Shown here in pieces: positions 13,584 through 40,318 of a stretch of DNA of 64,000 bases. The notes beneath the pieces were generated by a model. That model saw only the letters and a list, made by a program, of their open reading frames with translations, searched no databases and was not told the DNA's origin. The stretch is from the NCBI GenBank assembly GCA_963708095.1, contig OY970182.1, forward strand, positions 2,355,345 to 2,419,344, read 5' to 3'. The DNA comes from an uncultured Pseudomonadota bacterium. GTDB taxonomy: Bacteria; Pseudomonadota; Alphaproteobacteria; Acetobacterales; Acetobacteraceae. The position numbers and the translations under genes were made by a program. Every line of letters starts with the position of its first letter. Position 1 is the stretch's first letter.

Positions 13584-13597
13584 CGGTTGCCTCGAGC

Positions 13598-14514: not shown

Positions 14515-14560
14515 CCGAAGAAGCTGACGGTCCCGCGGGTCGCACGTCAGCGGGCTGGAA

Positions 14561-14585
14561 GGGGGCGGAAACGCCCCCTTTTTTT
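14561..14585 (+). terminator. Rho-independent terminator
   Basis: GGGGGCG-GAAA-CGCCCCC followed by seven T residues. Confidence 0.75.
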
Positions 14586-14778
14586 GCCTATACCGCCGGG
14601 TTCTTTACCGTCCACCTGATAAGGCCAGCTTTAAATAAGCCCCGAAGAGGCCCCCCGATGGCCGGCGAAGAACTGTTACTGCCTCGGCAGCCCTGAAGGT
14701 CAGCGTTTACGTAACCGGCCAGAACTGGCCGCGCGCCGTCTAACTTTGCGCCGAGGTCACTGGGTCTTTAGTTGGGCA

Positions 14779-16824
14779 TCAGATGCCAAAGCCCCGGTCG
14801 CGGCCGATCTGCCAGGAAATCCCGCCGTCGGTGACGACCCCGACGACGTCGCGGGCAACGGTTCGCTCGATCACCGGTCGCCAGGGGACCAGGGTGAATT
14901 CCTGGGCATTCTCGACGAGGGCGTAGCGACCGGAGGCGAGCTGGATAGCCTCGCGGTAGGTGCCGCGGATCGTGTCGCCGGGCGCCGGCATCCGGAATGG
15001 CACGGCGCGCGTCGCCGCCAGTTCGCCGCCGGCTCGCGCGAGTTCGCGGCGCTCCAGCGTCGCGAGCAGGTCCCGGTGATACCGCACGCCCCCGTCCGCG
15101 CCCCGACGCGCATCGCCGTGGCTGAGGTGATGCTGGCGGCGGCGCTCAAGGGCGACTTCGACCTCCAACCCGAACGCGCCTTGCGCGAGCGGCACCGGGT
15201 CGCGGGCCAGAAGTTGGCGATCGAGCCAGGTCGCCCCGTCGCTGCGGATCTGGGCTTCCAGGTCGAGCGCGGAGAGTACGCGCACACGGGGCGTCTGGCT
15301 GCGGCCCGTGTCGTGGCGGGCAGCTCGCTGTTCGAGATCCGGCGGGACGCGCCAATGGTCGGCGTCGAGCCGCTGGACCACGTCAGCGCGGCGCAGCGCC
15401 TCCAGGCGGCGGACATGCGCTTCGACATAGGCCTCCGCATCGGCGATGCCGGGATCGGCGCGCGCGGTGGCGAGGTGGTCCGCGGGCCGATAGATGCCGG
15501 CGGTCCTGTGCGCCAGGTCGGCGATGTTCCGGTCCGCGGCGCGCGGCGCTCCGCGTTCTGCGCCAAGCTCCACGATGGCCCCGATCGGCGGGTTGGTGGC
15601 ATCCGCGCCGGCGGCGGGGACCTCGACGTAGTGGACCCGCCCGTCGAGGCCATCGACGATCAGATGGACCCTATCGCCCAGTTCGTCGCCGCCAAGCCCC
15701 CGCCCCAGCAGCCGCCCAGTGATCGGTGCGGCGAGCGGCTCGCGGAGGTCGTGGATCGCGAACTGCTCGGCGCCGCGTTCCGCACCATGGCGGGTCAACG
15801 CATGGTGCATGGTCTTGATGATGTCCCCGCGTTCCCCGAGGGCGCGCAGCGTCTCCTCCATGCCGGGAACCAGACGCCAGCGGCCGGTGGCGATCTCCTC
15901 GGCCAATTCCAGCCGCTCCAGGGCTTGCAGCCGGCCGATCCGTAGCTGCCAGTCGAAGTCGGAGCGCGGCTCCCCGACGACGGTGCGGAGGTCGATCACG
16001 CCACCCACCGCCTCACCGGCCTCGCGCAGCAGCGCCCGATCGATCCGGGTCAGCCGTTTCTGGTCGATCTCGCGCACGAGCTTCACCTGTCGTTCCATCG
16101 TGCTTTCCGGGCCGAGCTCGATGGTGACCAGCTCCGAGGCGCGCTCCCGGATGCCGTGGGCCAGATAGGCCCCGGCGATCACCAGATTCTCGCCGGCCTC
16201 ATCGACGCCGCGGATGACGATGTGGGTGTGCGGGTGTGCGGTGTTGAAGTGATCGACTGCGACCCAGTCGAGTCCGGTTCCGAGATCGCGCTCGACCTGC
16301 CGCATCAGATCACGGGTGAAGGCGCGGAGGTCGGAGAGCTCCGCGCCGTCCTCCGCGGCAACGATCAGCCGGAACTGACGCGGGTCGCCCTCTGAGCGGT
16401 CGAGGAAGGCGCGGCCATCGGCCCGGTCGGCCGTGGCGGAGTAGAGCTGGCCGGGTGAGCCCTCTCGGGTGACGCCGTCACGCTGGAGGTAGCGCAGATG
16501 CACCGCCGCCGCGCGGCTCGCGGCGCGCATCTTCACGTAGCGCGCCTTGACGACGACTCGGCGCGCGCCTGGCTGCACCTGCGACCAGCCCCGTGGTGAG
16601 GCTGCCCGGCCGCGCGCGAACGCTGCGCCCCTGCCGCGCTTGGCTGGCAGATCGGCGAGGCTCCGCATGCCCGCAGGTGGCCCACCAGCTGATGATCGCG
16701 CGAGAGGGCCGGCACGAGAAATCGCGCGCTTGATCTGCGTTGCCGCCAGCACCCGCCCATGATCCCGGCTACGCGTGCGGCCGAGGCGTGGACGAAGGCG
16801 CGGGTCATCGTCAGTGCGAGCCAT
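14779..16824 (-). CDS. Conjugative relaxase (VirD2/MOBP-like nuclease domain plus DUF3363-like C-terminal region)
   Basis: Start at MARTDDDPRLRPRLGR. Histidine triad HFNTAHPHTHIVIRG. The long C-terminal region is common in ICE relaxases of this type. Confidence 0.9.
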   Translation of the reverse strand: MARTDDDPRLRPRLGRTRSRDHGRVLAATQIKRAISRAGPLARSSAGGPPAGMRSLADLPAKRGRGAAFARGRAASPRGWSQVQPGARRVVVKARYVKMRAASRAAAVHLRYLQRDGVTREGSPGQLYSATADRADGRAFLDRSEGDPRQFRLIVAAEDGAELSDLRAFTRDLMRQVERDLGTGLDWVAVDHFNTAHPHTHIVIRGVDEAGENLVIAGAYLAHGIRERASELVTIELGPESTMERQVKLVREIDQKRLTRIDRALLREAGEAVGGVIDLRTVVGEPRSDFDWQLRIGRLQALERLELAEEIATGRWRLVPGMEETLRALGERGDIIKTMHHALTRHGAERGAEQFAIHDLREPLAAPITGRLLGRGLGGDELGDRVHLIVDGLDGRVHYVEVPAAGADATNPPIGAIVELGAERGAPRAADRNIADLAHRTAGIYRPADHLATARADPGIADAEAYVEAHVRRLEALRRADVVQRLDADHWRVPPDLEQRAARHDTGRSQTPRVRVLSALDLEAQIRSDGATWLDRQLLARDPVPLAQGAFGLEVEVALERRRQHHLSHGDARRGADGGVRYHRDLLATLERRELARAGGELAATRAVPFRMPAPGDTIRGTYREAIQLASGRYALVENAQEFTLVPWRPVIERTVARDVVGVVTDGGISWQIGRDRGFGI

Positions 16825-17288
16825 ACTCCGAGATTGACGGCAGAGCTGCCACTCGCGAAGGAGCCTTGGTGGCACTGCGAAAATGCGCCGATGAAGGCGG
16901 CCTTGAGACGGGGTTGCCGTGCGTCGTTGCGACTCCGCGGCACGGCCTCCACGGTCGATAACCCAATGTGCAGACACTGAAATCGCGACCAATCGCGCGG
17001 AGTGGTGCCGCAGGCCTTTATCTTGCCGTCCCTTCTAATCGGAACTTTCGTCTCTCTCCGGTCGTCTTTCTCGAAGCGCAGATCAACAGAAATCGCCGCA
17101 AGCAATACGATGCGCTGCGATCTCGCACGGCGGGCCACGATAGTCGGATGGATCGACGCCGCCATGCGAATTGACGGTGCGATCAGCTGCGGACCAGGTG
17201 CAGCGCATGTGCAGTTCGACAGCCGGATCTCGCGCCAGGCCGCGACATCGACAGAAGCGGTCGTCAGATCATCCGCGGTGTGCCGGCG

Positions 17289-18137
17289 TCATTGGAGGGC
17301 GACGAACAGCGCACCATGTCCGCGCACATCGAGGGCAGAACCGGAGACGGATCGCGGCACAAGTCCGGCCGCAGCCGAACGGCCCGTGACCACCGCCGGC
17401 GCAGACATCGGCGCCCGGCTTGGTCTCACGATCGGCGGAACCGTGCGCGCCGGATAGGCCTCGGGATGCACAACGACGGTCGCGAAGAGGCCGGCGCTGA
17501 TGGCGTCGCTCGGGCCCGGGACCGGCGGCTCCGGAGGAGACTTCGTGCTCAATCCCGTCGTCGCGACTGCCGCCTGCAACGCACCCGACATGCCGCCGAT
17601 CTGCGGCGCGAGTGCGGCGAGGTAGCGCTGTGTCTCGGCCGGCAGCGCGCGGCCGGTGCGCAGGAACGCATCGAGCCGCGCCGGCCCGGCGTTGTAGGCA
17701 GCGAGGAACCAGGGCACGCCGTAGCGGTCCAGCAACTCGCGCAAATACGCCGCGCCGGCGAGGATGTTGTCGCGCGGCGCATACGGATTGGCCCCCAGCC
17801 CGTAGCGGGCACGCAGCGCGGCGTAGGTCTGCGGCATCACCTGCATCAGGCCCATCGCGCCTGCTGGTGAGCGGATTGGCTCGCCGTCCATGGTCGCCTG
17901 GCCGCCGCTCTCCGCGCGCATCACGGCGGCAATCCATGCTTCGGGAATGTCGAAGCGGTGCGCCGCCGCGGCGATGTCGGGCTGCCAAACGGCGACCGCT
18001 TCGTGTCCGTGGCCGCGCAATAGGGGTGCCGCACTTGCGCACACCGGCGCGCCGCTGAGCGGTACGAACAGCGCCGCGCGGGCCGCAAGACCGCAGGTCG
18101 CGACCAGGGTCAGCACGTCCATCGTGAACCCCTCCAT
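17289..18137 (-). CDS. Lytic transglycosylase (SLT domain)
   Basis: AVMRAESGGQ...GAMGLMQVMP...AAYNAG. Start uncertain (18137 or 18122; the track start 18212 is less likely). Confidence 0.85.
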   Translation of the reverse strand: MEGFTMDVLTLVATCGLAARAALFVPLSGAPVCASAAPLLRGHGHEAVAVWQPDIAAAAHRFDIPEAWIAAVMRAESGGQATMDGEPIRSPAGAMGLMQVMPQTYAALRARYGLGANPYAPRDNILAGAAYLRELLDRYGVPWFLAAYNAGPARLDAFLRTGRALPAETQRYLAALAPQIGGMSGALQAAVATTGLSTKSPPEPPVPGPSDAISAGLFATVVVHPEAYPARTVPPIVRPSRAPMSAPAVVTGRSAAAGLVPRSVSGSALDVRGHGALFVALQ

Positions 18138-18339
18138 GAGCCAAAGCGCTGCCACGCCGCCGACAGGTGAAGCGCTGCCAGCGTGCTCGCTTCGGTCAAG
18201 GGTAAAGCGCACCAGGGCGCGCCGGCTTCGCCGCCCTTGACCTTCGCTGCGCGCGCCGGCGATGCGGAAACTGGCCGGGACGGCAGGATGGCCGTCCCTG
18301 GGCCGAACAACAGGATGGCGGGGAAGATGCGCGGCACGG

Positions 18340-28019: not shown

Positions 28020-28967
28020 TCACACGCCGCCCTCCCCGAACCGCCACACTGGAATGCCGAGACCCCGGGCCTTGTCAGCAAGGTTCTCGCAGATGCCCGA
28101 GCCCGGGAAGACGATCACCCCGATCGGCATCGTCTCGAGCATCCGGTCATTCCGCTTGAACGGTGCCGCCTTGTTGTGCCGTGCCCATTCGGGCTTGAAC
28201 GCGATCTGCGTGACGTTGCGGGAGTTTGCCCAGCAGGCGGCGATGCGTTCGGCCCCTCGCGGGGTGCCGCCGTGCAGCAGCACCATGTCGGCGTGCTTGC
28301 GATACACCCGGTCGAGCACCGCCCAGATGCGCCCGTGGTCGTTGAAATCGACCCCGCCGGCGAAGGCGATCCGCGGCCCGGCGGGCAGCAGCACCTCGGT
28401 CTCGGCGCGGCGCTTGGCAGCGATGAAGTCGCGGCTGTCGATCATCGCAGCGGTCAGGGCGCGGTGGTTGACCATCGATCCCGCACGCGGACGCCAGGCC
28501 GAGCCGGTGTGGCGTTCGAACAGCTCGGCGGCGTGGTCGCGGAGAAGCTCGAAGGCGTTGCGCCGCTCGATCAAGGTCAGCCCCTCGGCGATCAGGCGTT
28601 CCAGCTCGACCGAGCGGATTTCCGAGCCGTCCTGCTCCTGCTGGCTGTGGCGCTGCCGGTCCTCGTTGGCGTCGAGCTCGCGCTGCACGCGGTCCACCGT
28701 GCGGTGGAAGAGATTGACCTGCGACCAGAGCAGATCGGCGAGGTCGGGTTCCAGCCGCGTCTCGGAAAGGGTGGAGACGAGGGCGTCGAAGATGTCGGCC
28801 AGCGCGCCTTCGAGCCGTGCGGCCTCGGGCAGTGGACGCGGATCCGGGTCGTCCTGGTAGGGGCGATGGCCGTAGAGCTGCAGCTCGTCGAGCAGGCGGG
28901 CGGTCGGGGATGCGGCGTGGGCTGGCTCGGCATCGTCGTGGTGCCGGGTGAAGCGGTCGGTCGCCAT
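28020..28967 (-). CDS. DUF2493-domain (SLOG-like) protein
   Basis: 315 aa from MATDRFTRHHDD. The C-terminus is IAFAGGVDFNDHGRIWAVLDRVYRKHADMVLLHGGTPRGAERIAACWA. Confidence 0.7.
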   Translation of the reverse strand: MATDRFTRHHDDAEPAHAASPTARLLDELQLYGHRPYQDDPDPRPLPEAARLEGALADIFDALVSTLSETRLEPDLADLLWSQVNLFHRTVDRVQRELDANEDRQRHSQQEQDGSEIRSVELERLIAEGLTLIERRNAFELLRDHAAELFERHTGSAWRPRAGSMVNHRALTAAMIDSRDFIAAKRRAETEVLLPAGPRIAFAGGVDFNDHGRIWAVLDRVYRKHADMVLLHGGTPRGAERIAACWANSRNVTQIAFKPEWARHNKAAPFKRNDRMLETMPIGVIVFPGSGICENLADKARGLGIPVWRFGEGGV

Positions 28968-29170
28968 GATCGGTGTCCTCGTTCGGCTGGCCGCGCCCAT
29001 CGCGGCCTTCACGGCGATCCCTTGGCCGGGGCCGGGCCGGGGCTGCACCGCCAAGCTCCGCGCGGGCGGCCGGAGCGCAGCGGAGGACGGCGGGCGGCGG
29101 CTATTTTGCCTCGCGATGCAAAGCGCCCCTTCTGGGGCGCGGCGGAAAATAGTCACCGCCCGCCGTTGCG
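28968..29170 (-). promoter_or_regulatory. Class-B structured leader, copy 2 (upstream of the DUF2493 gene)
   Basis: Same invariant blocks as copy 1 (GCGCAGCGGAGGACGGCG at 29075-29092). Stems are in equivalent positions but with different sequence: CTATTTT/AAAATAG (29101-29107 / 29146-29152) enclose GCGCCCC-TTCT-GGGGCGC (29123-29140). Confidence 0.45.
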
Positions 29171-29291
29171 TCCCCGGCCCGGTTCTGGCCCGATCGCCGC
29201 TCTCAGAAGGCCGTGGGCACGGCCCACTCCCGGACACGAGGCACAACGGCGACCGGCGGCGTTCTTCCGACACGAGGCGTTGCCAGGTCTC

Positions 29292-30144
29292 TCACGCTGA
29301 AGCCACAGGCTGCGTGCCGCCCGATGCAAAGCGCGCGGCACCCTCCGGGGTGAGCTGGACCCTCAGCCGTGCCAACAGAGCGTGGGCACCGAAGCGGCGC
29401 AGGTCGGCGTTGAAGTCGTTCGTCACCGGCCAGAGCATGCGCGCCTCGATCCCGGCCGCTTTGGCCCGGTCGCGCAGACGCTTCGCCGCATGACGCCCGG
29501 CCGCGTCGTTGTCGCGCGCGATGTAGAGGCGGCGCAGCGCCGGCGGCAGGATCAGGGCGGTGAGGTGGTTCGCCGAGAGCGCCGCCGCCATCGGCATGTC
29601 GGGCAAGACGCATCGCAGCGACAGCATTGTCTCGATGCCTTCGCCCGCGATCATGACGTCGGACGCCGTGCCGAAGCGGACGGCGTTGCCGAGGAGATTG
29701 CCCAGCGCCCGGCGTGGTGTGGCGATCGGCGCCTTGCCGGCGCCGTCCCGGTCGAGCCAGGTTCGATGCACGCCGGTGATCGCGCCGGCGGCGTCGGTGA
29801 CCGCGGTGATCAGCGCCGGCCAGGACTCACGGGGGGCAGCGTCATGCGCCCGGTAGAAGCAGCCGGGGTGGAAGCGGAGTGCCGGTATGTCGTCCAGGCG
29901 TGCGGTGATGCCACGGTTGCGGAGATAGGTTTCGGCCAGGGTCCCGACGATCGGACGCGAAAGAGCGAACAGCCGCCGGGCCGAGTCCGACGATCCCGCT
30001 CGTGCCGGTGCGCGCGCCGGCTCCCGCTGCGGCAGTCCGAGGAAGGCCCGTGCCTCGCCCAGCGTATCGCCCAGGCGATCGAGACCACGGTTGAGCCGGA
30101 TCAGGTCGAGCAGATCGCCATGCTGACCGGTTGCGGCGTCGGTC
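29292..30144 (-). pseudogene. C-terminal fragment of the resident Toprim-domain gene, split by the RIT element
   Basis: The frame reads TDAATGQHGDLLDLIR...AGEGIETMLSL...LYIARDNDAAG (Toprim Glu and DxD). There is no start codon. It joins seamlessly with the fragment at 35733-35929. Confidence 0.8.
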
Positions 30145-30168
30145 TTATGTGCAGTTGAACATAAGACC
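30141..30168. repeat. 10-8-10 palindrome at the left junction (candidate recombinase core site)
   Basis: GGTCTTATGT-GCAGTTGA-ACATAAGACC. The architecture resembles lox/FRT-type core sites. Present only at the left end. Confidence 0.5.
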
Positions 30169-30770
30169 GATTATGTTGCGCGGCTGGTTATGTTGCGGTC
30201 CCGCGCTGGGCGGCGGTGTTGCGAGCGATCGGCGGCTTCTACGCAACATAACCTCAGCCCATCGGGGTGGGTCGCGTGATGCCCCGCGACGCTTCCGAAC
30301 TGGCGCGTCGGCTCGCCCGCGACGCCGAGGCGGTCTGCCGCCATTACCTCTCCAAGGGACGACGCCAGGGCCGCTACTGGACGGTGGGCGACGTGCGCAA
30401 CACGCCCGGCCGGTCGATGTTCGTGCGGCTGAGCGGGCCGGACTCCGGCCCCGGCGCCGCCGGGCGCTGGACCGATGCCGCCTCGGCCGAGCACGGCGAT
30501 CTGCTCGACGTCATCCGCGAGAGCTGCGGGCTCATGCAGTTCCGCGAGGTCGCCGACGAGGCGCGGCGCTTCCTCTCGCTGCCCCGCGCCGAACCGACGG
30601 CCGCGCCACTACCACCCGCCCCGCAGGGCTCGCCCGAAGCGGCGCGCAGGCTCTGGGCCATGGCCAAGCCGCTCGCCGGCACCTTGGCCGAGACTTACCT
30701 TCACGCCCGCGGGATCAACGATCTGAGGGGCTGTGAGACCCTCCGCTTCCACCCGCGCTGCTGGTATCGC
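30165..30770. repeat. Left terminal inverted repeat (606 bp)
   Basis: Exact reverse complement of 35133-35738 (position x pairs with 65903-x). Supported by identical translations in several frames and by direct comparison at both ends. Confidence 0.95.
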
Positions 30771-31322
30771 CCGGAGGAGCATGCGCCGACCGAGACCTGG
30801 CCGGCGATGATCGCCGCCGTGACTGACCTTTCCGGCGCCATCACCGGCGTGCATCGCACCTGGCTTGCCCGGGACGGCTCGGCCAAGGCGCCGATCGACA
30901 CGCCACGACGAGCCATGGGTGGTCTCCTCGGCCATGCCGTCCGGTTCGGAACGGCCGGCGACGTCCTCGCGGCCGGCGAAGGCATCGAGACGATGCTGTC
31001 GCTGTTGTGCGCGCTGCCCGCCATGCCCATGGCGGCGGCCCTGTCGGCCAGCCATCTCGCCGTTCTCGAGTTCCCGTCGGCGCTCCGTCGGCTCTACATC
31101 GCCCGCGACGGCGACACCGCGGGCGACATAGCCGCCGCGGCGCTCACCGAGCGAGCCGAAGCCGCTGGCGTCGAGGCGCTGGTCCTCTCCCCGCAACGGG
31201 ACGACTTCAACGAGGACCTGCGCGCGTTCGGCCTCAGCGCCGTTCGCGCATCGGTGCGCACCCAGCTCGCGCCGCACGATGCGGTCCGCTTCATGCGCCG
31301 GAGGATGGCCAGGACGGGGTGA
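30279..31322 (+). CDS. Toprim-domain (primase-like) protein, element copy A
   Basis: MPRDASELARRLARDAEAVCRHYLSKGRRQGRYW...AGEGIETMLSL...LYIARDGDTAG. The first 164 codons are identical to copy B. Confidence 0.8.
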   Translation: MPRDASELARRLARDAEAVCRHYLSKGRRQGRYWTVGDVRNTPGRSMFVRLSGPDSGPGAAGRWTDAASAEHGDLLDVIRESCGLMQFREVADEARRFLSLPRAEPTAAPLPPAPQGSPEAARRLWAMAKPLAGTLAETYLHARGINDLRGCETLRFHPRCWYRPEEHAPTETWPAMIAAVTDLSGAITGVHRTWLARDGSAKAPIDTPRRAMGGLLGHAVRFGTAGDVLAAGEGIETMLSLLCALPAMPMAAALSASHLAVLEFPSALRRLYIARDGDTAGDIAAAALTERAEAAGVEALVLSPQRDDFNEDLRAFGLSAVRASVRTQLAPHDAVRFMRRRMARTG

Positions 31323-31347
31323 CCGATGCCGGCACCCCGTCCCCAAC

Positions 31348-32343
31348 TCACAAGGCCTTCAGGAAGGCCATGAGATCCTTGTCCTCCTTCCATGAGCGAG
31401 CGGGCCGTGGCTGTCCCACTTCGCAGAGCGCAACAGCGTTGGCTTTCAGCGTGAGGTCGATCTCGGCATAAATATTGGTCGTGCTGATCGAGACGTGTCC
31501 GAGCCAAGCGCGGATGGTGTTGATGTCCACGCCGGCGAGGACCAAGTGGCAGGCCGTTGTGTGCCGGATCACGTGCGGGGTTATCGTTCGGCCGGCCAGT
31601 TCCGGGACTTGGGCCGCACAGCGCTCGATCAGGCGGTAGACCCCGAAGCGGGTAAACGGCGTCCCGAGCCGGCTGACGAACACGGAGTCTTCGCCCGCAC
31701 GACCGATGATCTCGTCCATCAGGACGCGCTCGGTTTCCGGCCACAGCGGACACTGGCGCGTCCTACCGCCCTTACCGTGCAAGTTGGCCAGATCGTGCCC
31801 GCCGTTCCGCGACCCGATTTGCAGATCGCGCACCCTCAGCTGGGTGGCTTCGGAGACTCTTGCGCCGGTGTTGTAGAGGAAGAGCAGAAGCGCGTACTCG
31901 CTCCGGCCGCGCCGGGTCTTGCGGTCGGGCGTCGCCAGCATCGCCTCCATCTCCGCCCGTGTCAGCCATCCGACTGGCGGCGGCATAGACCTCTTCGACG
32001 CGATGGCCCGGATGTGACCGCACCACTCGACAAGGGTCGGATCCCGGCTGCCGACGAAGCGCGCGAACGCCCGGATGGCGGCAAGCCGCTGATTGCGGGT
32101 CCGCGCGGAGCAACCTCGATCCGTCTCGAGATGAGCGAGGAACTGCAGCACGTGTCCGGACGTGAGGTCCGATACGGCCAGCCGGTCCACGGGCTTGCGC
32201 GCTTTCCGGCTGACGAAGGGCAGCAACAGGCTGAAGGTGTCGCGGTAGCTTTTGCGGGTGTTCCGGGCGAGATTGCGTTCAGTGACGATGTGCTCGGTGA
32301 GGAACCGGCGGAGCCAGGGGCCGAGGATTGAGAGGTCAGGCAT
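31348..32343 (-). CDS. ritC: Tyrosine recombinase, third gene of the trio (RitC-like)
   Basis: MPDLSILGPWLRRFLTEHIVTERNLARNTRKSYRDT...HVIRHTTACHL...LGHVSISTTNIYAE. The start overlaps the ritB stop by 8 nt. Confidence 0.85.
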   Translation of the reverse strand: MPDLSILGPWLRRFLTEHIVTERNLARNTRKSYRDTFSLLLPFVSRKARKPVDRLAVSDLTSGHVLQFLAHLETDRGCSARTRNQRLAAIRAFARFVGSRDPTLVEWCGHIRAIASKRSMPPPVGWLTRAEMEAMLATPDRKTRRGRSEYALLLFLYNTGARVSEATQLRVRDLQIGSRNGGHDLANLHGKGGRTRQCPLWPETERVLMDEIIGRAGEDSVFVSRLGTPFTRFGVYRLIERCAAQVPELAGRTITPHVIRHTTACHLVLAGVDINTIRAWLGHVSISTTNIYAEIDLTLKANAVALCEVGQPRPARSWKEDKDLMAFLKAL

Positions 32344-33286
32344 GCCGACCTCCCGCCGCATAGTGGGCGAACCGCAGCGACGCCTGTTCCAGCAGCTCCG
32401 GCGTCATCGACAGATAGACCTTCGTGCCCTCCAGATCGGCGTGACCGAGATAGGTGGAGAGCACCGGCAGCAGCCGTTGCACATCGGCGCCCTGCCGATA
32501 CCAGCTCGTCAGGCGATGGACAGCGAAGCTGTGACGAAGATCGTGCAGCCGCGGGATTGTCCGGCCGCCTGCCGCGCGGTGGACCCCGGCGACGCGCCGC
32601 AGCGCGTCGAACGCGGCCTGCACGGTGCTGCTCGCGAGCCGCGTTCCATCCTGGTTCGCCAAGAGCAACGCATTCTGGCCGTCCACAAGCCCGGCTTGCC
32701 GGTGCTGGGACACGTGGCTGTCCAGCACCGCGGCAAGCTGTGCCCCGACCGGGACCAGCCGGCTCTTGTAGAACTTCGTGGCCCGGATGGTCAGGACGGC
32801 GTTCGCCAGATCGACGTCGGCCAAGGTGAGGCGAGTCGCCTCCCCGAAGCGTAACCCCGCGCCGTACAGCACGAGAAGCAAGGTGCGGAACGTCGCCGCA
32901 TCCAGCTGAACCGCGCCGCGCCGGCTTGCCTCCAGGGTCGCGGGATCGAAGAGGCGCGCAAGCTCATCGCGCGAGTAGATGTAGGGCGGCGCCCGGACGG
33001 GCGATCTCGGCGCATCGTCCGGCATCGGCCAGTGAGTGGCGTGGCCGCGGCTGATCGCGTGACGCCAGAAGCCGGCAAGCGCGTAGTACTTGTTCTCGCG
33101 GTGACGCGTTGGCGGGCCCTCGCCCGCCAGGTAGGCGAGGAGCTGCCCCGTGGTGATCGCGTCGCAGGCGGCGTCGCCATCGGCGTGGTCGAGGAAGCGG
33201 CGCAGGAGATTCGCCGCGGTCGTGTACTTCGCGCCGTGAGCCCGTCGCCATAGGATATATCGCTCGATTGCCTCACGCAGGATCAT
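32336..33286 (-). CDS. ritB: Tyrosine recombinase, second gene of the trio (RitB-like)
   Basis: 316 aa from MILREAIERY. HDLRHSFAVHRL...LGHADLEGTKVYL. ATGA overlap with the ritA stop. Confidence 0.85.
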   Translation of the reverse strand: MILREAIERYILWRRAHGAKYTTAANLLRRFLDHADGDAACDAITTGQLLAYLAGEGPPTRHRENKYYALAGFWRHAISRGHATHWPMPDDAPRSPVRAPPYIYSRDELARLFDPATLEASRRGAVQLDAATFRTLLLVLYGAGLRFGEATRLTLADVDLANAVLTIRATKFYKSRLVPVGAQLAAVLDSHVSQHRQAGLVDGQNALLLANQDGTRLASSTVQAAFDALRRVAGVHRAAGGRTIPRLHDLRHSFAVHRLTSWYRQGADVQRLLPVLSTYLGHADLEGTKVYLSMTPELLEQASLRFAHYAAGGRHA

Positions 33287-34635
33287 ACAAGGCCCTCCAG
33301 GTCGAGAGCGGCCACCTCGCGAAGCGCGACGAGGTCGACCTTGGCGTAGATCGTGGTGGAGGACGGATCGCGATGGCCGAGGAAGTCCCCGATCACCTTC
33401 ATCGACGTGCCCTGATCCAGCAGATGCTGGGCCGCCGCATGCCGCAGGGCGTGGGCGCCGCGTCGGCCGGTGACGACGCCGATGCCCGCCAGCCGGTCGC
33501 GGACCATCTTGCCCAGGGCTTTTCGGTCGAGCGGCCGGATCGGCGCATGCATCGTGAAGAAGAGGCTGCGTCCGAAGCCGGACGGCCGCGCCTCCCTGAT
33601 GTAGCGCAGGATGGCATGGCCCACGCCCTGCGACAGCGGCCACAGATGGGTTCGGCCCGGTTTCGGGCAGCGGACCCGAAGCATGGCGTTCTCCCAGTCC
33701 AGATCGTCCAGCCGCAGGCCGCCGACCTCTCCGGTCCGAAGCCCGTACCCGATGAACAGCATCAGGATAGCCCGGTCGCGCCTGTCGACCGGGCGATCAC
33801 CTCCAACCGACGCCAGCAGGCGCACGACATCCTCGCGCGGCAGCCCCTTCGGCACGGTCTCGTCGGCCATGAACCGGGGCGCCATGATCCCTGCTGCGAC
33901 GCCCGCTCGGCACCAGCCGCGCGTCTCGGCGAACAAGAAGAAGGCCCTCAGACGCTGCGCATAATCGTGTCTCGTACGGCGGCCCCAGGCGCCTCGCCCG
34001 AGCTCCGTCGCTACGGCATCGTCGATGTCGGTCATTCCTACGGCAATCAGCGGTGTGCCTCTTCCCGCCAGCCATAGGAAGAAGCGGTCGGCAGCCCGAC
34101 AATAGTCGTGCACGGTCGCCGCAGAGAGACCGCGTTCCTCGCGCATCCACCGCTCGAAGGCGCGGACCTCGGCGTCATGCGGATGGCGACGGTCGTCGGG
34201 TTCATCAAGCCAGCCCAGGAAGGCGAGCCATCGAACACCGTGGCTGACGAAGCGGTCGCGCGTCTTGGGCGACGCGGTCCGATCGCAGCGGCGTCCCCTC
34301 GGCTGCGACCACAGCACTGCAGCAGCCTCGATCTGCGACGGACTTACCCGCTCGCCATCTTCAAGGTCCAGAAGGCGCACCAGGCTCAGCTGATCGTTGG
34401 CGCACTTTCGCAGGGTCGATCGCCTCGCGCCGGTCGCCTTGAGATGAACGAGGTATCGTTCCCGCTGCTCCGCGAGCGGCGCTGCGCGATACCTCTTGGC
34501 GGTGTGGGGGAAGAAGATGTCGTCGAACACGTTGGCCTCCACGTTGTTGAAGGCTTGAGCTTCTCGACGGAGCGGGACGGCGGAAGCTATGTTGATCGCA
34601 CGCGAGGCCTTTCGTCCGGCGCGAGCTGGACGCAC
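33283..34635 (-). CDS. ritA: Tyrosine recombinase, first gene of the trio (RitA-like)
   Basis: HALRHAAAQHLL...LGHRDPSSTTIYAK. Start uncertain: the ATG at 34635 overlaps the Toprim copy B 3' end, and a GTG near 34542 is an alternative. Confidence 0.8.
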   Translation of the reverse strand: MRPARAGRKASRAINIASAVPLRREAQAFNNVEANVFDDIFFPHTAKRYRAAPLAEQRERYLVHLKATGARRSTLRKCANDQLSLVRLLDLEDGERVSPSQIEAAAVLWSQPRGRRCDRTASPKTRDRFVSHGVRWLAFLGWLDEPDDRRHPHDAEVRAFERWMREERGLSAATVHDYCRAADRFFLWLAGRGTPLIAVGMTDIDDAVATELGRGAWGRRTRHDYAQRLRAFFLFAETRGWCRAGVAAGIMAPRFMADETVPKGLPREDVVRLLASVGGDRPVDRRDRAILMLFIGYGLRTGEVGGLRLDDLDWENAMLRVRCPKPGRTHLWPLSQGVGHAILRYIREARPSGFGRSLFFTMHAPIRPLDRKALGKMVRDRLAGIGVVTGRRGAHALRHAAAQHLLDQGTSMKVIGDFLGHRDPSSTTIYAKVDLVALREVAALDLEGLV

Positions 34636-35624
34636 AGTCCGTTCCTCAGCACCTCGGCGCCGAGCTGGCGCAGGTCTTCGTTGAAGTCGTTCAGCGCTGG
34701 CACGAGCGTCAGCGCCTCGACACCAGCGGCACGCGCGCGGTCGGCCAGGGTCTCCACCGCACGGTGTCCTGCGGGATCATCGTCCCGCGCGAGGTAGAGC
34801 CGTCGTAATCCGGCGGGCAGTTCGAGCGCGGCGAGGTGGTTGGCCGAGAGCGCGGCCGCCGCCGGCATCGAGGGCATGACCTGCCGAAGCGAGAGGATCG
34901 TTTCCAGCCCTTCTCCTGCGATCAAGACGTCGACCGCGCGGCCGAACCGGACGGCGTTGCCAAGCAGCAGGCCCATGGCGCGGCGGGGCGTCGAGACCGG
35001 TGCTTTGCAGGCGGACCCTGGATCCAGCCAGGTGCGGTGCGCACCGGTCATCGCGCCATCGAGCGCCGTGACCGCCGCGATCAGCGCGGGCCAGGCATCC
35101 CGAGCCCGGTCACGGAGGTCGTCATCGTCGCCGCGATACCAGCAGCGCGGGTGGAAGCGGAGGGTCTCACAGCCCCTCAGATCGTTGATCCCGCGGGCGT
35201 GAAGGTAAGTCTCGGCCAAGGTGCCGGCGAGCGGCTTGGCCATGGCCCAGAGCCTGCGCGCCGCTTCGGGCGAGCCCTGCGGGGCGGGTGGTAGTGGCGC
35301 GGCCGTCGGTTCGGCGCGGGGCAGCGAGAGGAAGCGCCGCGCCTCGTCGGCGACCTCGCGGAACTGCATGAGCCCGCAGCTCTCGCGGATGACGTCGAGC
35401 AGATCGCCGTGCTCGGCCGAGGCGGCATCGGTCCAGCGCCCGGCGGCGCCGGGGCCGGAGTCCGGCCCGCTCAGCCGCACGAACATCGACCGGCCGGGCG
35501 TGTTGCGCACGTCGCCCACCGTCCAGTAGCGGCCCTGGCGTCGTCCCTTGGAGAGGTAATGGCGGCAGACCGCCTCGGCGTCGCGGGCGAGCCGACGCGC
35601 CAGTTCGGAAGCGTCGCGGGGCAT
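34587..35624 (-). CDS. Toprim-domain (primase-like) protein, element copy B
   Basis: The N-terminal 164 codons are identical to copy A. The C-terminus is diverged (AGEGLETILSL...LYLARDDDPAG). Confidence 0.8.
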   Translation of the reverse strand: MPRDASELARRLARDAEAVCRHYLSKGRRQGRYWTVGDVRNTPGRSMFVRLSGPDSGPGAAGRWTDAASAEHGDLLDVIRESCGLMQFREVADEARRFLSLPRAEPTAAPLPPAPQGSPEAARRLWAMAKPLAGTLAETYLHARGINDLRGCETLRFHPRCWYRGDDDDLRDRARDAWPALIAAVTALDGAMTGAHRTWLDPGSACKAPVSTPRRAMGLLLGNAVRFGRAVDVLIAGEGLETILSLRQVMPSMPAAAALSANHLAALELPAGLRRLYLARDDDPAGHRAVETLADRARAAGVEALTLVPALNDFNEDLRQLGAEVLRNGLCVQLAPDERPRVRST

Positions 35625-35738
35625 CACGCGACCCACCCCGATGGGCTGAGGTTATGTTGCGTAGAAGCCGCCGATCGCTCGCAACACCGCCGCCCAGCGC
35701 GGGACCGCAACATAACCAGCCGCGCAACATAATCGGTC
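35133..35738. repeat. Right terminal inverted repeat (606 bp)
   Basis: Mirror image of 30165-30770. Confidence 0.95.
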
Positions 35739-35929
35739 CATTTGCCGGCGGCACCCCGGCCGGAGTCCGGCCCGGTCAGCCGCACGAACAGGCTGCGGCC
35801 CGGCGTGTTCTGGACATCGCCGACCAGCCAGTAGCGGCCTTGGCGGCGGCCGTTGGAGAGGTAGTGGCGGCACACCGCCTCGGCCTTGCGCGCGAGGCGG
35901 TGTGCCAGTTCGGCGGCGGACCCGGACAT
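35733..35929 (-). pseudogene. N-terminal fragment of the resident Toprim-domain gene
   Basis: MSGSAAELAHRLARKAEAVCRHYLSNGRRQGRYWLVGDVQNTPGRSLFVRLTGPDSGRGAAGKWTD, then the frame runs into element sequence. Confidence 0.8.
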
Positions 35930-35944: not shown

Positions 35945-38900
35945 TCAGGCCGCGACACGATCGACGACTCGAAGGAGCGGCGATCGCTCGAACAGCGCCG
36001 AGAGGATCGCGGGTCCGCGTTCAGTGACCGGGACGAACAGCCGCAGCCGCCAGGCGATGATCTCGCTCGTGAGCCCCATCGCCTTGAGCTGATCGACGGC
36101 CCCCTCGGTGAAGCCGGCGAGTTCGACGCGGGCGGCACCCATTACCGTCGCGCGGCGGATGGTGAGCCCGCCGGCGAGATGCAGGACGGCGGCATCGGTG
36201 CGTACGGCGGACCACGCTTCGTCCGGCGACAGGGTCGGCGCGTCATCCAGCCCGAGCGCCCGGCAGACCTCGCCCATGGCGGCGGGCGAGATCAGGCGGC
36301 CAATGACCCGCTCACCATCGTCGGTCTGCATGCGATATACGCGCAGCGATTCGTCGGGCAGCCGGTTCCAGATCGGCAGGAGCAGGCCGGTGACGATGTG
36401 GAACGCGCTCTCGGTGAATTCCGGCACCTGGGCCACTTCGGCGGTCCAGGTCGCAGCGAACCTTTCGGCGTCCGCCTCCGTCCAATGGGTGTGATCCAGC
36501 GCGTCGAGGGCGAGCGTCTCGCGGGCCATCGGCCGGACGAGACGCACCCGGCGCTGCACCTCGCCGTCATCGAGGGTCAGGCTCGGCGCCGGCATCTGCA
36601 CCGCGGCACGGCCGGACTGGGCGTTGACCAGCAGCCGCGCTCGCGGGTCCCGCGCCAGGGCAAGCGCGTCGCCGGCGGGAAGCGGCCGGTTGCGGTCCCG
36701 CCGCAGCACCTTGAACAGCCGCGTTTCGGCGCCGCTCGCCGCGTGAGTATGGATGGTGCGCCGCTCGGTGATGCGCAGACTGTCCGCCGTCAGCGTCTCG
36801 ACGCCGACATCGTAGCTGCCGGCGGCGATCGCGTTCTCGATGCGGCTGGTAAGCAGCTCCTCGAACACCGCGAACAGGCCGTTCTGCAGGGCGATCGGCA
36901 GCGCCAGCAGCCGGTTGAGGAAGGTGGTGATCGGCGGCAGGTCCTCGCGTAGCGACCCGTCGCGGTCGGAGAGATCAAGCCCGGTCGTCTCCTCGAAACG
37001 CTGCAACGAGCAGCACTCCACCTTGCCGGCGAAGATCAGGCCGTAGAACTGCCGAAGTGCCGCGCGGGCATAGTGGCTTTCCAGATTGTCGTCGGCCCGG
37101 AACAGGCCTTGACCCCCGGTCTGGCGCTGGCCGCGCGTGATGGCGCCGAGGCTGTCGAGCCGGCGGGCGATGGTGGAGAGGAAACGTTTCTCGCCGCGCA
37201 CGTCGGTCGCCACCGGGCGGAACAGCGGCGGCTGGCGCTGATTGGTGCGGTTCGAGCGACCCAGCCCTTGGATGGCGGTGTCCGCCTTCCAGCCGGGCTC
37301 CAGCAGGTAGTGCACCCGCCGGCGCTGGTTCCGCGCGGCCAGATCGGCGTGATAGCTGCGTCCGGTGCCGCCGGCGTCGGAGAAGACCAGAATGCGCTTC
37401 TCATCGTCCATGAAGGCCTGGGTCTCGGCGAGATTGGCCGAGCCGGGCCTTGTCTCGACGGCGAGCCGCTCGGTGCCATCGGCGGCGACCTTGCGCACCA
37501 CGCGCCGCGACCGCCCGGTGACCTCGGCGACCTGATCGGTGCCGAAGCGCTGCACGATGTGATCCAGTGCGCCCTGCACCGCCGGAAGGGCGGCGAGGTG
37601 TTCCATCATCCGATCGCGCCGCTCCACCGCCTCGCGCGACTGCAACGGCTGGCCGTCGCGGAAAACCGGGCGGGAGAGCAAATTGCCCTCGCTGTCGGTG
37701 AACACCTCGAACAGCTGCGTCGGGAAACCGTGCGCCAGGTAGTCGAGGACGTATTCGCGCGGGGTGATGTCCACCTGCACGTCGCCCCACTCACCGGCGG
37801 GGATGTCGGCCAGCCGCCGGTCCAGCAGTGCTTCGCCGGTGGAGACCAGTTGGACGATGCAGGCGGCGCCTGCGGCGATGTCGCGCTCGATGGCGCCGAT
37901 CAGCGTCGGCACCTTCATCGCGGTGATGAGGTGGTTGAAGAAGCGCTGCTTGTTCGATTCGAACGCCGATCGTGCCGCCGCTTTCGCCTGGCGGTTCAGC
38001 GTGCCGGACGGGCCGGTGACGTTGGCGGCTTCCAGGGCCTCGGTCAGGTTGGCGTGGATCACCTGGAACGCCTCGGCATAGGCATCGTAGATGCGCACCT
38101 GCTCGGGGGTGAGCGCGTGCTCGACGATCTCGACCTCGATTCCCTCGTACGATAGCGACCGCGCGGCGTAGAGACCGAGCGCCTTTAGATCCCGCGCCAG
38201 CACCTCCATCGCGGCGATGCCGCCGGCCTCCATCGCAGCGACGAATTCCTGTCGCGTCGCGAACGGGAAATCCGCCCCGCCCCAGAGGCCCAGCCTTTGC
38301 GCATAGGCGAGGTTCTGCACCGAGGTCGCACCGGTCGCGGAGACATAGAGCACCCGTGCGTCGGGCAGCGCATGTTGCAGGCGCAGCCCGGCGCGGCCCT
38401 GCTGGGACGGCCCGCGCTCGCCGCGTTCGGAGGTGTCGCCGGCGGCGTTGGCCATGGCGTGCGCCTCGTCGAACACGACCACCCCGTCGAAATCCCGTCC
38501 CAGCCAGTCGATGATCTGATCGAGCCGCGACGCCTTGCCCTCCCGTTCCGCGGAGCGCAGCGTGGCGTAGGTGGTGAACAGGATGCCCTGGTCGAGGCGG
38601 ATCCGCGTGCCCTGGCGGAAGCGCGCGAGCGGAGTGATCAGCAGCCGCTCCTGGCCGAGTGCGGACCAGTCGCGCTGGGCGTCCTCGATCAGCTTGTCGG
38701 ACTTCGAGACCCAGAGCGCGCGGCGGCGGCCCTTCAGCCAGTTGTCGAGAATGACGCCGGCAACCTGCCGCCCCTTGCCCGCGCCGGTGCCATCGCCGAG
38801 GAACCAGCCGCGGCGGAAGCGCACCGCGCCCTCGGCGTCGTCGGGGGCGGCGGAGACCTCGTCGTAGGTCGCATCCACCAGCCAGGCGCCGGCGAGATGC

Positions 38901-40318
38901 CCGGCATGGGCTTCGCCTGCGTAGATGACGCTCTCGATCTGCGCATCCGATAGCAGACCGCCCGAGACGATCTCCGACGGTAGATGCGGCCGGTAGCTTG
39001 GGCGCGGCGGCGCTACGGACGCCATGGCCGCGGATTGCACGAGCTTCGTCGGATGCGGCTGCGCGTCCGGGATGGCGATGGTCTGGACGGCATAGCCTTC
39101 GTAGAGCGCATCGCTGATGCGGCCATGTTCGGCCGGCAGTTCCCCCCGGACCTCGTAGGCGAGCGGGAGGCCGGGATCGATCGCCGGTTCCGGGTGACGG
39201 GTCGGGGTGGGATGCAGGCGCGGGACGATCGCGCGTGGGGGCACCGGGCGGGCGGCGGGCGCCGCGACCGCGACTGGGGGCGCTGACAAGGCCGGGCGCG
39301 GCGGCACGAGGCGGGTCACCCACTCCAGCAGCGTCGCCGCGTCGGGGGCGATGCCGGGACATGGGGGGAAGACGGTCGGGTCCTCGGCCGGCACGCGGTC
39401 GATGACGGTCAGTCGCGTCTCGACCGCGGTGCCGTGGCGAGCATAAACGCGGCGGTCGATCCCGGCCGAGAACACCACCCGCCCGCGCGCCTGCAGCCGG
39501 ACGAAATCCTCCCGCCAAGACGGGTTGTCCGGCGCGAGCGAGATGCCGGTGATCGCGACCAAGCGCCCGCCCTCGACCAGCCGCGCCAGCGCCGCGGCGA
39601 CATGGCGGAAGGCCGCGTCTGCCATCCGCCCCTCGAGATGCGCGGCGACCGAGAAAGGCGGGTTCATCAGCACCACCGACGGCGCAATGGCCGGAGCCAG
39701 GTAATCGTGGATCTGCGCCGCGTCGTAACGGCTGACGGCGACGCCTGGGAACAGATTGCCGAGCAGGTCGGCGCGGGTCTCGGCGAGCTCGTTCAGTGCC
39801 AGGACGCCGCCAGCGAGGGCGGCGAAGACGGCGAGCAGCCCGGTGCCAGCGGACGGTTCCAGCACCAGGTCACCCGGCGTGATCGCGGCGGCGACGCTGG
39901 CCGCGAAGCCGAGCGCAATCGGCGTCGAGAACTGCTGGAGTGCCGCACTCTCTTCGGAGCGGCGGGTATGCGTCGGCACCAGCGCGGCCAGCCGGGCCAG
40001 CATGGCGAGCATCCCCGCCGGGCTGCCGGCGCGGGCGCGCATGGCCGGGGCGTGCCGGCGCAGGAACAGAACCTGCGCGGCCTCGCAGGCCTCGTAGGCG
40101 TCCTTCCACACCCAGGCGCCGCCGGTGTCGGATGCGCCGAACGCCGCCTCCATGGCGGCGCGCAGGATGGCGGCATCGAGGGCCTGGCCCCGCTCCAGCG
40201 CGGGCAGCAGCAGCCGGGCGGCGTGCAGGATGGCGGACGCCCGATCGGGCGCAGGGGGCGCGGACGGGGATGCGAGCATGGCCGACCGCTCGGCCAGCGC
40301 GGGGACGATGAGGTTCAT
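35945..40318 (-). CDS. Giant N6-adenine methyltransferase fused to a strawberry-notch/SNF2-like helicase
   Basis: 1457 aa. MTase motifs LEPSAGTGLL and VLMNPPFS. Helicase P-loop GDGTGAGKGRQ and VVFDEAHAM. Confidence 0.9.
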   Translation of the reverse strand: MNLIVPALAERSAMLASPSAPPAPDRASAILHAARLLLPALERGQALDAAILRAAMEAAFGASDTGGAWVWKDAYEACEAAQVLFLRRHAPAMRARAGSPAGMLAMLARLAALVPTHTRRSEESAALQQFSTPIALGFAASVAAAITPGDLVLEPSAGTGLLAVFAALAGGVLALNELAETRADLLGNLFPGVAVSRYDAAQIHDYLAPAIAPSVVLMNPPFSVAAHLEGRMADAAFRHVAAALARLVEGGRLVAITGISLAPDNPSWREDFVRLQARGRVVFSAGIDRRVYARHGTAVETRLTVIDRVPAEDPTVFPPCPGIAPDAATLLEWVTRLVPPRPALSAPPVAVAAPAARPVPPRAIVPRLHPTPTRHPEPAIDPGLPLAYEVRGELPAEHGRISDALYEGYAVQTIAIPDAQPHPTKLVQSAAMASVAPPRPSYRPHLPSEIVSGGLLSDAQIESVIYAGEAHAGHLAGAWLVDATYDEVSAAPDDAEGAVRFRRGWFLGDGTGAGKGRQVAGVILDNWLKGRRRALWVSKSDKLIEDAQRDWSALGQERLLITPLARFRQGTRIRLDQGILFTTYATLRSAEREGKASRLDQIIDWLGRDFDGVVVFDEAHAMANAAGDTSERGERGPSQQGRAGLRLQHALPDARVLYVSATGATSVQNLAYAQRLGLWGGADFPFATRQEFVAAMEAGGIAAMEVLARDLKALGLYAARSLSYEGIEVEIVEHALTPEQVRIYDAYAEAFQVIHANLTEALEAANVTGPSGTLNRQAKAAARSAFESNKQRFFNHLITAMKVPTLIGAIERDIAAGAACIVQLVSTGEALLDRRLADIPAGEWGDVQVDITPREYVLDYLAHGFPTQLFEVFTDSEGNLLSRPVFRDGQPLQSREAVERRDRMMEHLAALPAVQGALDHIVQRFGTDQVAEVTGRSRRVVRKVAADGTERLAVETRPGSANLAETQAFMDDEKRILVFSDAGGTGRSYHADLAARNQRRRVHYLLEPGWKADTAIQGLGRSNRTNQRQPPLFRPVATDVRGEKRFLSTIARRLDSLGAITRGQRQTGGQGLFRADDNLESHYARAALRQFYGLIFAGKVECCSLQRFEETTGLDLSDRDGSLREDLPPITTFLNRLLALPIALQNGLFAVFEELLTSRIENAIAAGSYDVGVETLTADSLRITERRTIHTHAASGAETRLFKVLRRDRNRPLPAGDALALARDPRARLLVNAQSGRAAVQMPAPSLTLDDGEVQRRVRLVRPMARETLALDALDHTHWTEADAERFAATWTAEVAQVPEFTESAFHIVTGLLLPIWNRLPDESLRVYRMQTDDGERVIGRLISPAAMGEVCRALGLDDAPTLSPDEAWSAVRTDAAVLHLAGGLTIRRATVMGAARVELAGFTEGAVDQLKAMGLTSEIIAWRLRLFVPVTERGPAILSALFERSPLLRVVDRVAA

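Follow-up and report, generated by a model that had tools for sequence, protein, structure and literature searches.

A site-specific recombinase-in-trio element that probably replaces the primase gene that it breaks

What becomes of a conserved gene when it is interrupted by a mobile element that carries homologs of the same gene in both of its ends? This question is raised by a locus in the window analysed here, a stretch of 64,000 nucleotides from an uncultured alphaproteobacterium of the family Acetobacteraceae (assembly GCA_963708095.1, contig OY970182.1, positions 2,355,345 to 2,419,344), in which a primase gene with a Toprim domain is split between a strawberry-notch-type methylase/helicase gene (snf) and a DUF2493 gene. 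It is near certain that positions 30145-35732 of the window are a recombinase-in-trio (RIT) element of a Toprim-carrying clade, and the site of its insertion is equally clear. It is probable that the element is a site-specific RIT element replacing the primase gene that it breaks; the replacement function of its arms, taken separately, is moderately supported. The argument is built on the following features, where ORF stands for open reading frame.

30145-35732, unstranded: RIT element proper, 5,588 bp, with 6-bp core copies on both sides, delimited by the anatomy of the junctions
35733-35738, minus strand: core GACCGA of the snf-proximal junction (attL-like), common to the resident W-T-D codons and the right arm
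30139-30144, minus strand: core GACCGA of the distal junction (attR-like), after which the rest of the resident gene follows
30165-30170, plus strand: third, inverted copy of the core GACCGA (internal site S1)
30145-30164, unstranded: 20-bp palindrome TTATGTGCAGTTGAACATAA, composed of TTATGT-GCAGTTGA-ACATAA, between the left core and the left arm, at this end only
30165-30770, unstranded: left arm of the perfect inverted repeat
35133-35738, unstranded: right arm of the perfect inverted repeat
30171-30251, plus strand: terminal repeats, candidate recombinase-binding sites, with TTATGTTGCG at 30171 and 30188 and the inverted copy CGCAACATAA at 30242
35652, 35706 and 35723: mirrored terminal repeat motifs in the opposite arm
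30279-31322, plus strand: element-borne primase gene of type A (DUF7146 + Toprim_3), converging on ritC
34587-35624, minus strand: element-borne primase gene of type B, in the same direction as snf and ritABC, with the ATG at 35624-35622
33283-34530, minus strand: ritA, 415 aa, start set by alignment to homologs, Pfam Phage_integrase
32336-33286, minus strand: ritB, 316 aa, Pfam Phage_integrase
31348-32343, minus strand: ritC, 331 aa from MPDLSIL..., Pfam Phage_integrase
35624-35929, minus strand: truncated resident primase ORF, codons 1-65 (35929-35733) and then in frame via the element end to the TGA at 35626-35624
29292-30138, minus strand: remainder (3' part) of the resident primase gene, ...AATGQHGDLL up to its stop codon

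The two inverted arms, 606 nt each and 4362 nt apart, are 100% complementary. Each consists of a 114-bp leader and exactly 164 codons of a DUF7146+Toprim_3 gene (ATG at 30279 on the plus strand and at 35624 on the minus strand), and past the repeat the two element-borne Toprim genes diverge to about 60-70% identity. The exact repeat and its content had been described in a first-pass annotation of the window, as about 114 bp of upstream sequence and 164 Toprim codons with diverged C-termini beyond, and both the coordinates and the Pfam matches agree with that description. The same annotation regarded so long, perfect and coding a repeat as unusual; the repeat is there, and it is better described as a hallmark of the clade, other members of which possess perfect arms of 0.9-1.14 kb. 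Similarity to related plasmid elements begins exactly at 30165. The arms are terminal inverted repeats of the RIT kind, with three TTATGTTGCG motifs in their outermost ~100 bp, and these motifs are kept in 39/39 distinct linkers, as the element ends joined to the truncated target are called below. No Rfam match was found anywhere in the window.

The insertion lies at the G-K-W-T-D codons of the resident DUF7146-Toprim primase gene, on the 6-bp core GACCGA. When the minus-strand segments 35929-35739 and 30144-29292 are joined, they form one open frame of 347 codons, without a frameshift or a stop, so that the seamless joining of the split Toprim gene proposed earlier is confirmed. The protein joined in silico has full-length relatives of 347 aa at 88-91% identity, and an intact 347-aa gene stands between snf and DUF2493 in a metagenome-assembled genome (MAG; locus L092) and in Acidiphilium multivorum (L094). 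The joined 6.7-kb snf-Toprim-DUF2493 region aligns to both of them at ~91% (91.3%) as one colinear piece over the junction. The fragments are therefore contiguous in natural empty sites, contrary to the possibility, raised in the first-pass annotation, that no empty site would join them. The site in L092 reads GGCAAATGGACCGACGCCGCG, one base off the window reconstruction, and the restored primase target of the window would be GGCAAATGGACCGACGCC. The intact, uninterrupted arrangement was also found in an Indioceanicola plasmid; snf-Toprim-DUF2493 is a frequent gene order on plasmids of Alphaproteobacteria, uninterrupted in at least 42 plasmid records.

The Toprim_3 domain is matched in Pfam with E of about 1e-20 by copy A, copy B and the resident gene. 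The translations contain EGIET and DGD/DDD/DND, and all three copies contain a D-aromatic-N-acidic motif, DFNED or DFNAD. Toprim_3 proteins of elements with a type IV secretion system (T4SS) have been described as DnaG-like conjugative primases with a D-aromatic-N-acidic (DaN-) motif (PMC5512222). Because of this description and the presence of DFNED/DFNAD, the target gene is most likely a conjugative primase gene, as judged from the sequence. A sequence search of the PDB with the primase gave no match.

The word TCGGTC, which had been noticed at both junctions, is indeed present at 30139-30144 and 35733-35738 (plus strand). It represents a recombination core, and no target duplication of the transposase type is involved. 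The 20-bp palindrome and the third, inverted core, at the end adjoining the 3' part of the target, had been overlooked. The 20-mer with its flanking cores gives a 12-bp stem when folded as single-stranded DNA, and we take the palindrome to be made up of the inner arms of two core sites placed back to back. The word TGGACCGA was found, as reported earlier, inside both element-borne genes, at 30468-30475 and as the complement at 35428-35435. The element-borne genes retain GACCGA but read G-(H/R)-W-T-D-A-A-S, and the targets read G-K-W-T-D-A-A-T-G; the lysine codon of the target makes GCAARTG, which resembles the arm motif GCAACAT. It is possible that the G-(H/R)-W-T-D variant may protect the element from self-insertion.

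The three recombinase genes lie on one strand in the order A-B-C with ATGA-type overlaps, 4 nt for ritA/ritB (33283-33286) and 8 nt for ritB/ritC (32336-32343). In known RITs, consecutive ORFs overlap by short stretches of 4-8 nt (PMC3414803). A BLASTP comparison with the trio PHG134/135/136 of pHG1 gave reciprocal best matches, with 34% identity for A-A, 36% for B-B and 35% for C-C, against ~25% for the cross-matches. The catalytic motifs read from the translations are GLRTGE ... HALRH ... GH ... IYAKV in RitA, GLRFGE ... HDLRH ... GH ... VYLSM in RitB and GARVSE ... HVIRH ... GH ... IYAEI in RitC; thus R...H-x-x-R...Y is present in all three proteins, and the Pfam matches span the catalytic domain. 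The window element has the sequence-level features that define RITs, in line with the three overlapping tyrosine recombinases and the RIT membership assigned at first reading. That it is also mobile as a unit is suggested by comparison: diverged backbones in large number have the same target occupied, relatives have empty sites, one MAG has four copies (L019-L022), and a distant RIT forms an apparently circular contig.

A scan with a RitA alignment against one genome per species returned 80 loci, in 70 of which RitA is at least 60% identical. The further copies and their flanks that had been suggested as worth a search thus exist, as ~70 related trio loci in Alphaproteobacteria, which are at the same target codons wherever the junctions are readable. 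Among the members with enough flank, a Toprim gene lies just upstream of ritA in 40 of 53 and an inverted Toprim gene just downstream of ritC in 37 of 44; most members without an adjacent Toprim arm have cargo in between. The hosts include Rhodopila, Acidiphilium, Acidocella, Rhodoplanes, Xanthobacter, Bradyrhizobium and Methylocapsa, as well as Mesorhizobium, Nitratireductor, Hyphomonas, Labrenzia, Celeribacter and Salipiger, and the closest relative was found in Rhodopila globiformis DSM 161 (92.7% DNA identity). The arrangement snf, N-fragment, Toprim, RitA-B-C, inverted Toprim, C-fragment, DUF2493 recurs in ~25 loci of many genera, and both orientations of the element are seen about equally often.

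All loci with readable flanks are split in the same way, the N-fragment ending ...G-K-W/F-T-D and the C-fragment beginning ...A-A-T-G-x-H-G-D. The proposal of site-specific insertion into a conserved codon block is thus upheld by the same G-K-W/F-T-D codons in every related element with readable junctions. In the Toprim-gene insertions, the snf-side junction reads target - core - (T/A)TATGTTGCG... and the far-side junction reads ...CGCAACATAA - core' - TTATGT N8 ACATAA - core - target. The distal pattern ...GCAACATAA-core'-20mer-core-target occurs in every such insertion with a readable distal junction (~24 loci), and the 20-mer is on the 3' side of the target in these ~24 loci in either orientation of the element. 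The core is mostly GACCGA, with TACGGA in the Rhodobacter and Sagittula elements.

The comparison also bears on whether the inverted duplication could be an assembly artefact, to which a practically negligible probability is given. A perfect 606-bp repeat exceeds short reads, so assemblers can misjoin it. However, more than 20 independent assemblies show the same architecture, as do many long contigs and three complete plasmids, namely pAA02 of Aminobacter aminovorans, pEJ01 of Rhodobacter xanthinilyticus and p4 of Sagittula, where the layout is the same and the perfect arms are 1122-1139 nt long. Many short-read contigs of relatives comprise the interior alone (3.3-4.8 kb) and stop, symmetrically, 120-230 bp into each arm, as a real repeat would make them do, and the flanking gene halves join seamlessly and match real uninterrupted genes.

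With the insertion established, the fate of the broken gene can be considered. The truncated resident ORF starts at 35929 and continues in frame through the core and the 114-bp element end to the TGA at 35626-35624, the last base of which is also the first base of the primase B ATG (TGATG); a Shine-Dalgarno sequence, GGGAGG, lies a few bases upstream. This in-frame run had been overlooked, and the earlier statement that the resident gene is destroyed is half the story: the gene is split, and the Toprim gene of the element appears coupled to the truncated ORF. Of 23 loci, 21 have the TGATG overlap, and both orientation classes are represented among them. The linker length is 103, 106 or 109 nt, with the frame kept, in 37 of the 39 distinct linkers, and 105 nt, with the frame lost, in the other two. 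No linker has a stop in the resident frame (0/39), against 39 and 7 with stops in the other two frames. Since the linker indels come in threes, a coding constraint is favoured over a spacing constraint. We read this as translational coupling of the truncated ORF to the primase gene of the element: ribosomes ending the truncated ORF would restart on the element's gene and, both arms being alike, the replacement would work in either orientation of the element.

The two element-borne genes are kept intact. Both have full-length Pfam matches, consistent with the two intact paralogues proposed by the first-pass annotation. The ratio of nonsynonymous to synonymous substitution (dN/dS) between elements is 0.16-0.45 over both types and 0.16-0.33 for type A (the type A gene of L012 was excluded as a wrong match), both genes being under purifying selection. 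It could be argued that the Toprim arm genes are passive cargo or leftovers, alike merely by conversion and bringing no benefit, and that the frame and the TGATG are incidental. L025 and L026 lack Toprim genes at the same site, the type-B C-terminus groups near resident genes, suggesting past exchange with hosts, and the resident gene of L094 has an element-type site sequence, all of which would suit such an origin. We nevertheless consider it quite unlikely, given that the indels of the linkers are multiples of three in 37/39 cases with the resident frame never interrupted, that the stop-start overlap is kept in 21/23 loci despite diverged linkers, that both gene copies are under purifying selection, and that Toprim arms occur in 40/53 and 37/44 assessable members.

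Some observations on these loci may be added here. L026 (8843-12634) is a minimal clade member of 3.8 kb with 109-bp perfect ends, no full Toprim gene and a remnant of a C-terminus upstream of ritA. L025 and L026 have the left flank in common and differ in the right flank and in the orientation of the 20-mer. The uninterrupted primase gene of L094 (6303-7346, Acidiphilium multivorum) has the element-type site GGGCGCTGGACCGATGCC, with R-W-T-D, not GGCAAATGGACCGAC; the gene may have acquired it by exchange from an element-borne copy, or may be a resistant allele.

The arms evolve in concert. In the window, L006 and L012, the two arms of the element are 100% identical for their outermost 500-600 bp, after which identity drops abruptly to ~60-65%; perfect identity reaches ~900 bp in L020 and L022 and ~1.1 kb in L001-L003. 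Between the window, L006 and L012, the outer 500 bp are 88-91% identical. Identity of 100% within elements and of 88-91% between them shows that the arms were homogenised separately in each lineage. The gene conversion and the invertibility which the first-pass annotation had deduced from the repeat agree with these values and with the occurrence of both orientations. As other members are patchy at 80-94%, homogenisation is frequent gene conversion with no obligatory copying step. A rule of end-to-end copying with tracts always starting from the tip was considered and rejected, as L008, L041 and L047 are patchy and many arms are 80-94% identical. Recombination of the arms with each other apparently flips the interior and has repeatedly homogenised the outer 0.5-1.1 kb.

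In the subgroup of the window, the C-terminal halves fall into two distinct clades, one of type A and one of type B. Their C-terminal protein identity is 79-87% between the window type A and type A of L005, L006, L008, L012 and L022, 86-96% between the window type B and type B of L005, L006, L007, L008 and L012, and about 60% between the window types A and B. The boundary of the repeat (30770/35133) falls at an indel-rich loop, PEEHAPTET vs GDDDDLRDRARDA, which would stop the extension of heteroduplex.

If the interior of the window element flipped, the type A C-terminus would take the place of type B behind snf. This leads to another explanation, in which the element is mainly an invertible switch: the 4.4-kb interior flips via the arms or the inverted cores, swapping the A and B C-terminus behind snf and deciding the read-through of ritABC from the host operon, and transposition is secondary or extinct. 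The similar frequency of the two orientations fits it, as do the stable, separately conserved A and B C-terminal halves under purifying selection. Inside the element no sigma-70-like promoter was found, and the one terminator match is below chance, by a scan that was not tuned for Alphaproteobacteria; this too would suit a switch. So would the central 8-mer of the 20-mer, which occurs in both orientations independently of the orientation of the element, all four combinations being seen. Since the 8-mer is uncoupled from the orientation of the element, the interior must also flip after insertion, and recombination between the arms is the simplest route for such flips. An 8-mer orientation that tracks the orientation of the element, as pure alternate core use predicts, was rejected on the same four combinations. 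On the other hand, the arms of L001-L003 are identical over nearly the whole gene, so a flip leaves the protein unchanged; most homologous backbones have no element, with uninterrupted genes in at least 42 plasmids; the presence of elements in distant genera on diverged backbones needs mobility; and some members carry unrelated cargo. A role mainly as a switch is, to our mind, improbable to the same degree as that of passive cargo.

Under the preferred reading, replacement by a site-specific RIT element, RitA, RitB and RitC, which are Xer-like tyrosine recombinases, would integrate the element by recombination between GACCGA in its joined ends and the same core in the G-K-W-T-D-A-A-T-G-x-H-G-D block of the primase. 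With inverted arms on both sides of a short crossover region, ACATAA - 6 bp - TTATGT looks like a tyrosine-recombinase core site. In the joined ends, the order would be end A - core' - TTATGT N8 ACATAA - core - end B, with two opposed core sites set back to back and the predicted 54-bp core region GCAACATAA-TCGGTC-20mer-GACCGA-TTATGTTGC. Recombination of either core site with the target core would lead to one or the other orientation, and the 20-mer with the inverted core would stay at the 3' side of the target. The three core copies differ by one base in L002, L008, L012, L041 and L047, usually at the Thr wobble position. Because core copies within one element can differ in this way, one-base heterology of the core is apparently tolerated, and the internal core seems to retain the sequence of an earlier site.

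The double-armed junction was also looked for in metagenomes, where five contigs of distant RITs, with 30-50% protein identity, contain it. L089 (contig Ga0268284_1009263), one of the five, is 3252 bp long, with its first 85 nt repeated at the end, and contains ritA-B-C and the predicted junction. The 85-nt terminal overlap corresponds to a circle of 3166 bp, and L089 appears to be a circular RIT of this size. L090 is 92% identical to L089 but linear, with a different left flank that resembles an RIT end. The same end structure was found in other RIT types (L064, L071 and L076), so it seems that the layout of the ends is general to RITs, beyond the Toprim-carrying clade. Nielsen et al. described palindromic repeats of 47-51 bp at RIT ends in Sphingobium (PMC5737581), and these are probably the same structure as the joined core/palindrome layout. 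Two unusual configurations were also seen: L007 (8600-14700) and L018 (9640-14560) have inverted N-terminal target fragments on both sides, with snf too in L007, and no 20-mer, and the distant RIT of L071 (whole contig) has the 20-mer at both ends. They resemble the pair of reciprocal products that would result if two inverted copies of an element recombined.

A further possibility is that RITs recombine as folded single strands and that their movement is tied to conjugative transfer of the repaired host. The palindrome and the 0.6-1.1-kb arms of a transferred or copied-out strand would fold into a hairpin with one duplex core site. If this were true, it would explain the facing cores, the one-base mismatches and the identity of the arms. 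Folded single-strand sites, in which close inverted core-like sites pair into a duplex, are known for CTX phage (XerCD) and for integron attC (IntI). The window element likewise has close inverted cores, and the Rit proteins are Xer/IntI-like. Standard sequencing libraries capture double-stranded DNA, which is assumed for the L089 metagenome; unlike the single strands used by CTX phage and attC, the circular L089 from that assembly is thus presumed to be double-stranded. We regard recombination of folded strands as a rather unlikely mechanism.

Several points weigh against replacement by a site-specific RIT element as set out above. Because the perfect repeat is 606 bp long, the orientation given to the 4.4-kb interior by a short-read assembly cannot be relied on. 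No identical copy of the window element was found elsewhere, and the nearest empty sites are 91% identical, not isogenic. The arms of several members are patchy and only 80-94% identical, and L025 and L026, without Toprim genes, are nevertheless at the same target codons, so that insertion needs no replacement. The spacing of binding sites might also constrain the length of the linker, and both coupling and complementation are predictions from the sequence design. The junction of L089 comes from RITs only 30-50% identical in protein and may have a tandem arrangement as its source. Finally, the target specificity and movement of RITs have been listed as untested (PMC10214605).

With respect to known systems, the archetype RITs of C. 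metallidurans CH34 and pHG1 (Van Houdt et al., PMC3414803, PMC2864759) are like the window element in the co-oriented RitA-B-C with 4-8-nt overlaps, the terminal inverted repeats, the location on plasmids or genomic islands and the interruption of conserved genes of integrative conjugative elements (ICEs), such as radC in CMGI-2 and in B. petrii GI3 (PMC2864759). Canonical RIT terminal repeats are about 34 bp long (PMC10214605), whereas the arms of this clade are 0.6-1.14 kb long and include a whole primase gene. A literature search, which did not cover the main RIT survey (Ricker et al. 2013), found no paper linking RITs with Toprim genes. The window element further differs from the archetypes in targeting a homologous primase gene with an arm apparently set for translational coupling to the truncated target. 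The kilobase arms with a full primase gene, the homologous primase target, the putative coupling design and the concerted evolution of the arms are considered new.

Integrators that repair their target are well known: SXT/R391 gives prfC a new 5' end, phage 21 and e14 integrate in icd, and many integrases use tRNA genes. As in the window element, a tyrosine recombinase enters a conserved gene at a short core, and the sequence carried in keeps the product available. However, these integrators supply the displaced gene end only, in one orientation, while the window element brings a whole paralogue in each of its two ends, would work in either orientation and leaves the interrupted gene split for good. 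The inverted repeats of plastid genomes are kept identical by gene conversion, and shufflons are invertible segments; here, too, the two arms undergo concerted evolution and the stretch that they enclose flips, but the arms are part of a transposable element, and the end-point of conversion is fixed within a gene. In Tn554, SEs and GInts, several tyrosine recombinases act together, as in the window element; the 6-bp crossover core is carried from the former site and may differ from the new target, and a double-stranded circular intermediate has been inferred for SEs (PMC10214605, PMC5385486). The window element lacks a fourth protein of the Tfp/GinC or TnpC/Srap type, and those systems lack its long inverted arms, back-to-back inverted cores and 20-bp palindrome.

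RITs are common in bacterial genomes, and the clade constitutes natural evidence on how they recombine. Its members provide dozens of insertions that arose independently at a single codon block, an exact 6-bp core with one-base heterology apparently tolerated, the joined-end layout and matching empty sites, and the mechanism is thereby testable with defined substrates of 30-60 bp. If replacement is true, a conserved conjugation gene would serve as the landing pad, with a spare in both ends of the element, and the vehicle for spread need not be crippled. Such a strategy is akin in logic to homing introns and target-rebuilding integrases, its means being symmetric whole-gene replacement. Perfect arms break short-read assemblies into orphan contigs of 3.3-5 kb, and such elements are easily missed or mis-oriented.

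The surroundings of the insertion belong to a Trb-type conjugative element, with a T4SS, a coupling protein and a relaxase. The conjugation genes at 724-16992 encode TrbI, CagX/TrbG, TrbL, TrbE, a T2SSE (TrbB-like) ATPase, TraG and a relaxase with DUF3363; the block, which also includes a lytic transglycosylase, extends over 724-18212, and a ParB-like protein and a RecD2-type helicase are encoded further right. The genes next to the split primase gene are as follows.

35945-40318, minus strand: strawberry-notch-type methylase/helicase gene (snf), 1457 aa, directly upstream of the target gene
28020-29273, minus strand: DUF2493/YAcAr gene, downstream of the target gene, start codon uncertain

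An imperfect inverted repeat of 29 nt (83%, 22-nt spacer) is located at 29087-29166 of the window, in the gap that separates the resident primase gene from the coding region of DUF2493. One MAG (JAJZVV, SKS5.bin74) contains both the empty perfect target site of L092 and, on a separate contig, the RIT interior of L028; this pair could be a population insertion polymorphism or a second conjugative element.

The cargo found between ritC and the Toprim arm comprises a potassium channel and an SLC13 permease in pAA02 of Aminobacter (L001, 7447-10113), 2.9 kb in L047 (6770-9657) and 7.3 kb in L039 (13180-20503). Other recombinases occupy the same backbone. A distant trio lies inside snf near codon 735 in Sagittula p4 (L003, 1-3640), another stands after DUF2493 (L064, 8520-10830), and others adjoin snf (L062 and L063); a recombinase pair is located inside the Toprim C-fragment of L069 and L075 (13715-15780). 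It seems that the ParB-snf-Toprim-DUF2493 block is a hot spot for several RIT types. In a Methylocystis heyeri plasmid (L085, 1-1292), tyrosine-recombinase genes lie ~2 kb upstream of an intact Toprim gene, in the usual position of snf. One MAG (isolate 09f1bc1b) contains four copies of a clade member (L019-L022), together with a separate 2334-bp repeat with a single tyrosine recombinase, which is inserted several times, including in ritB of L020.

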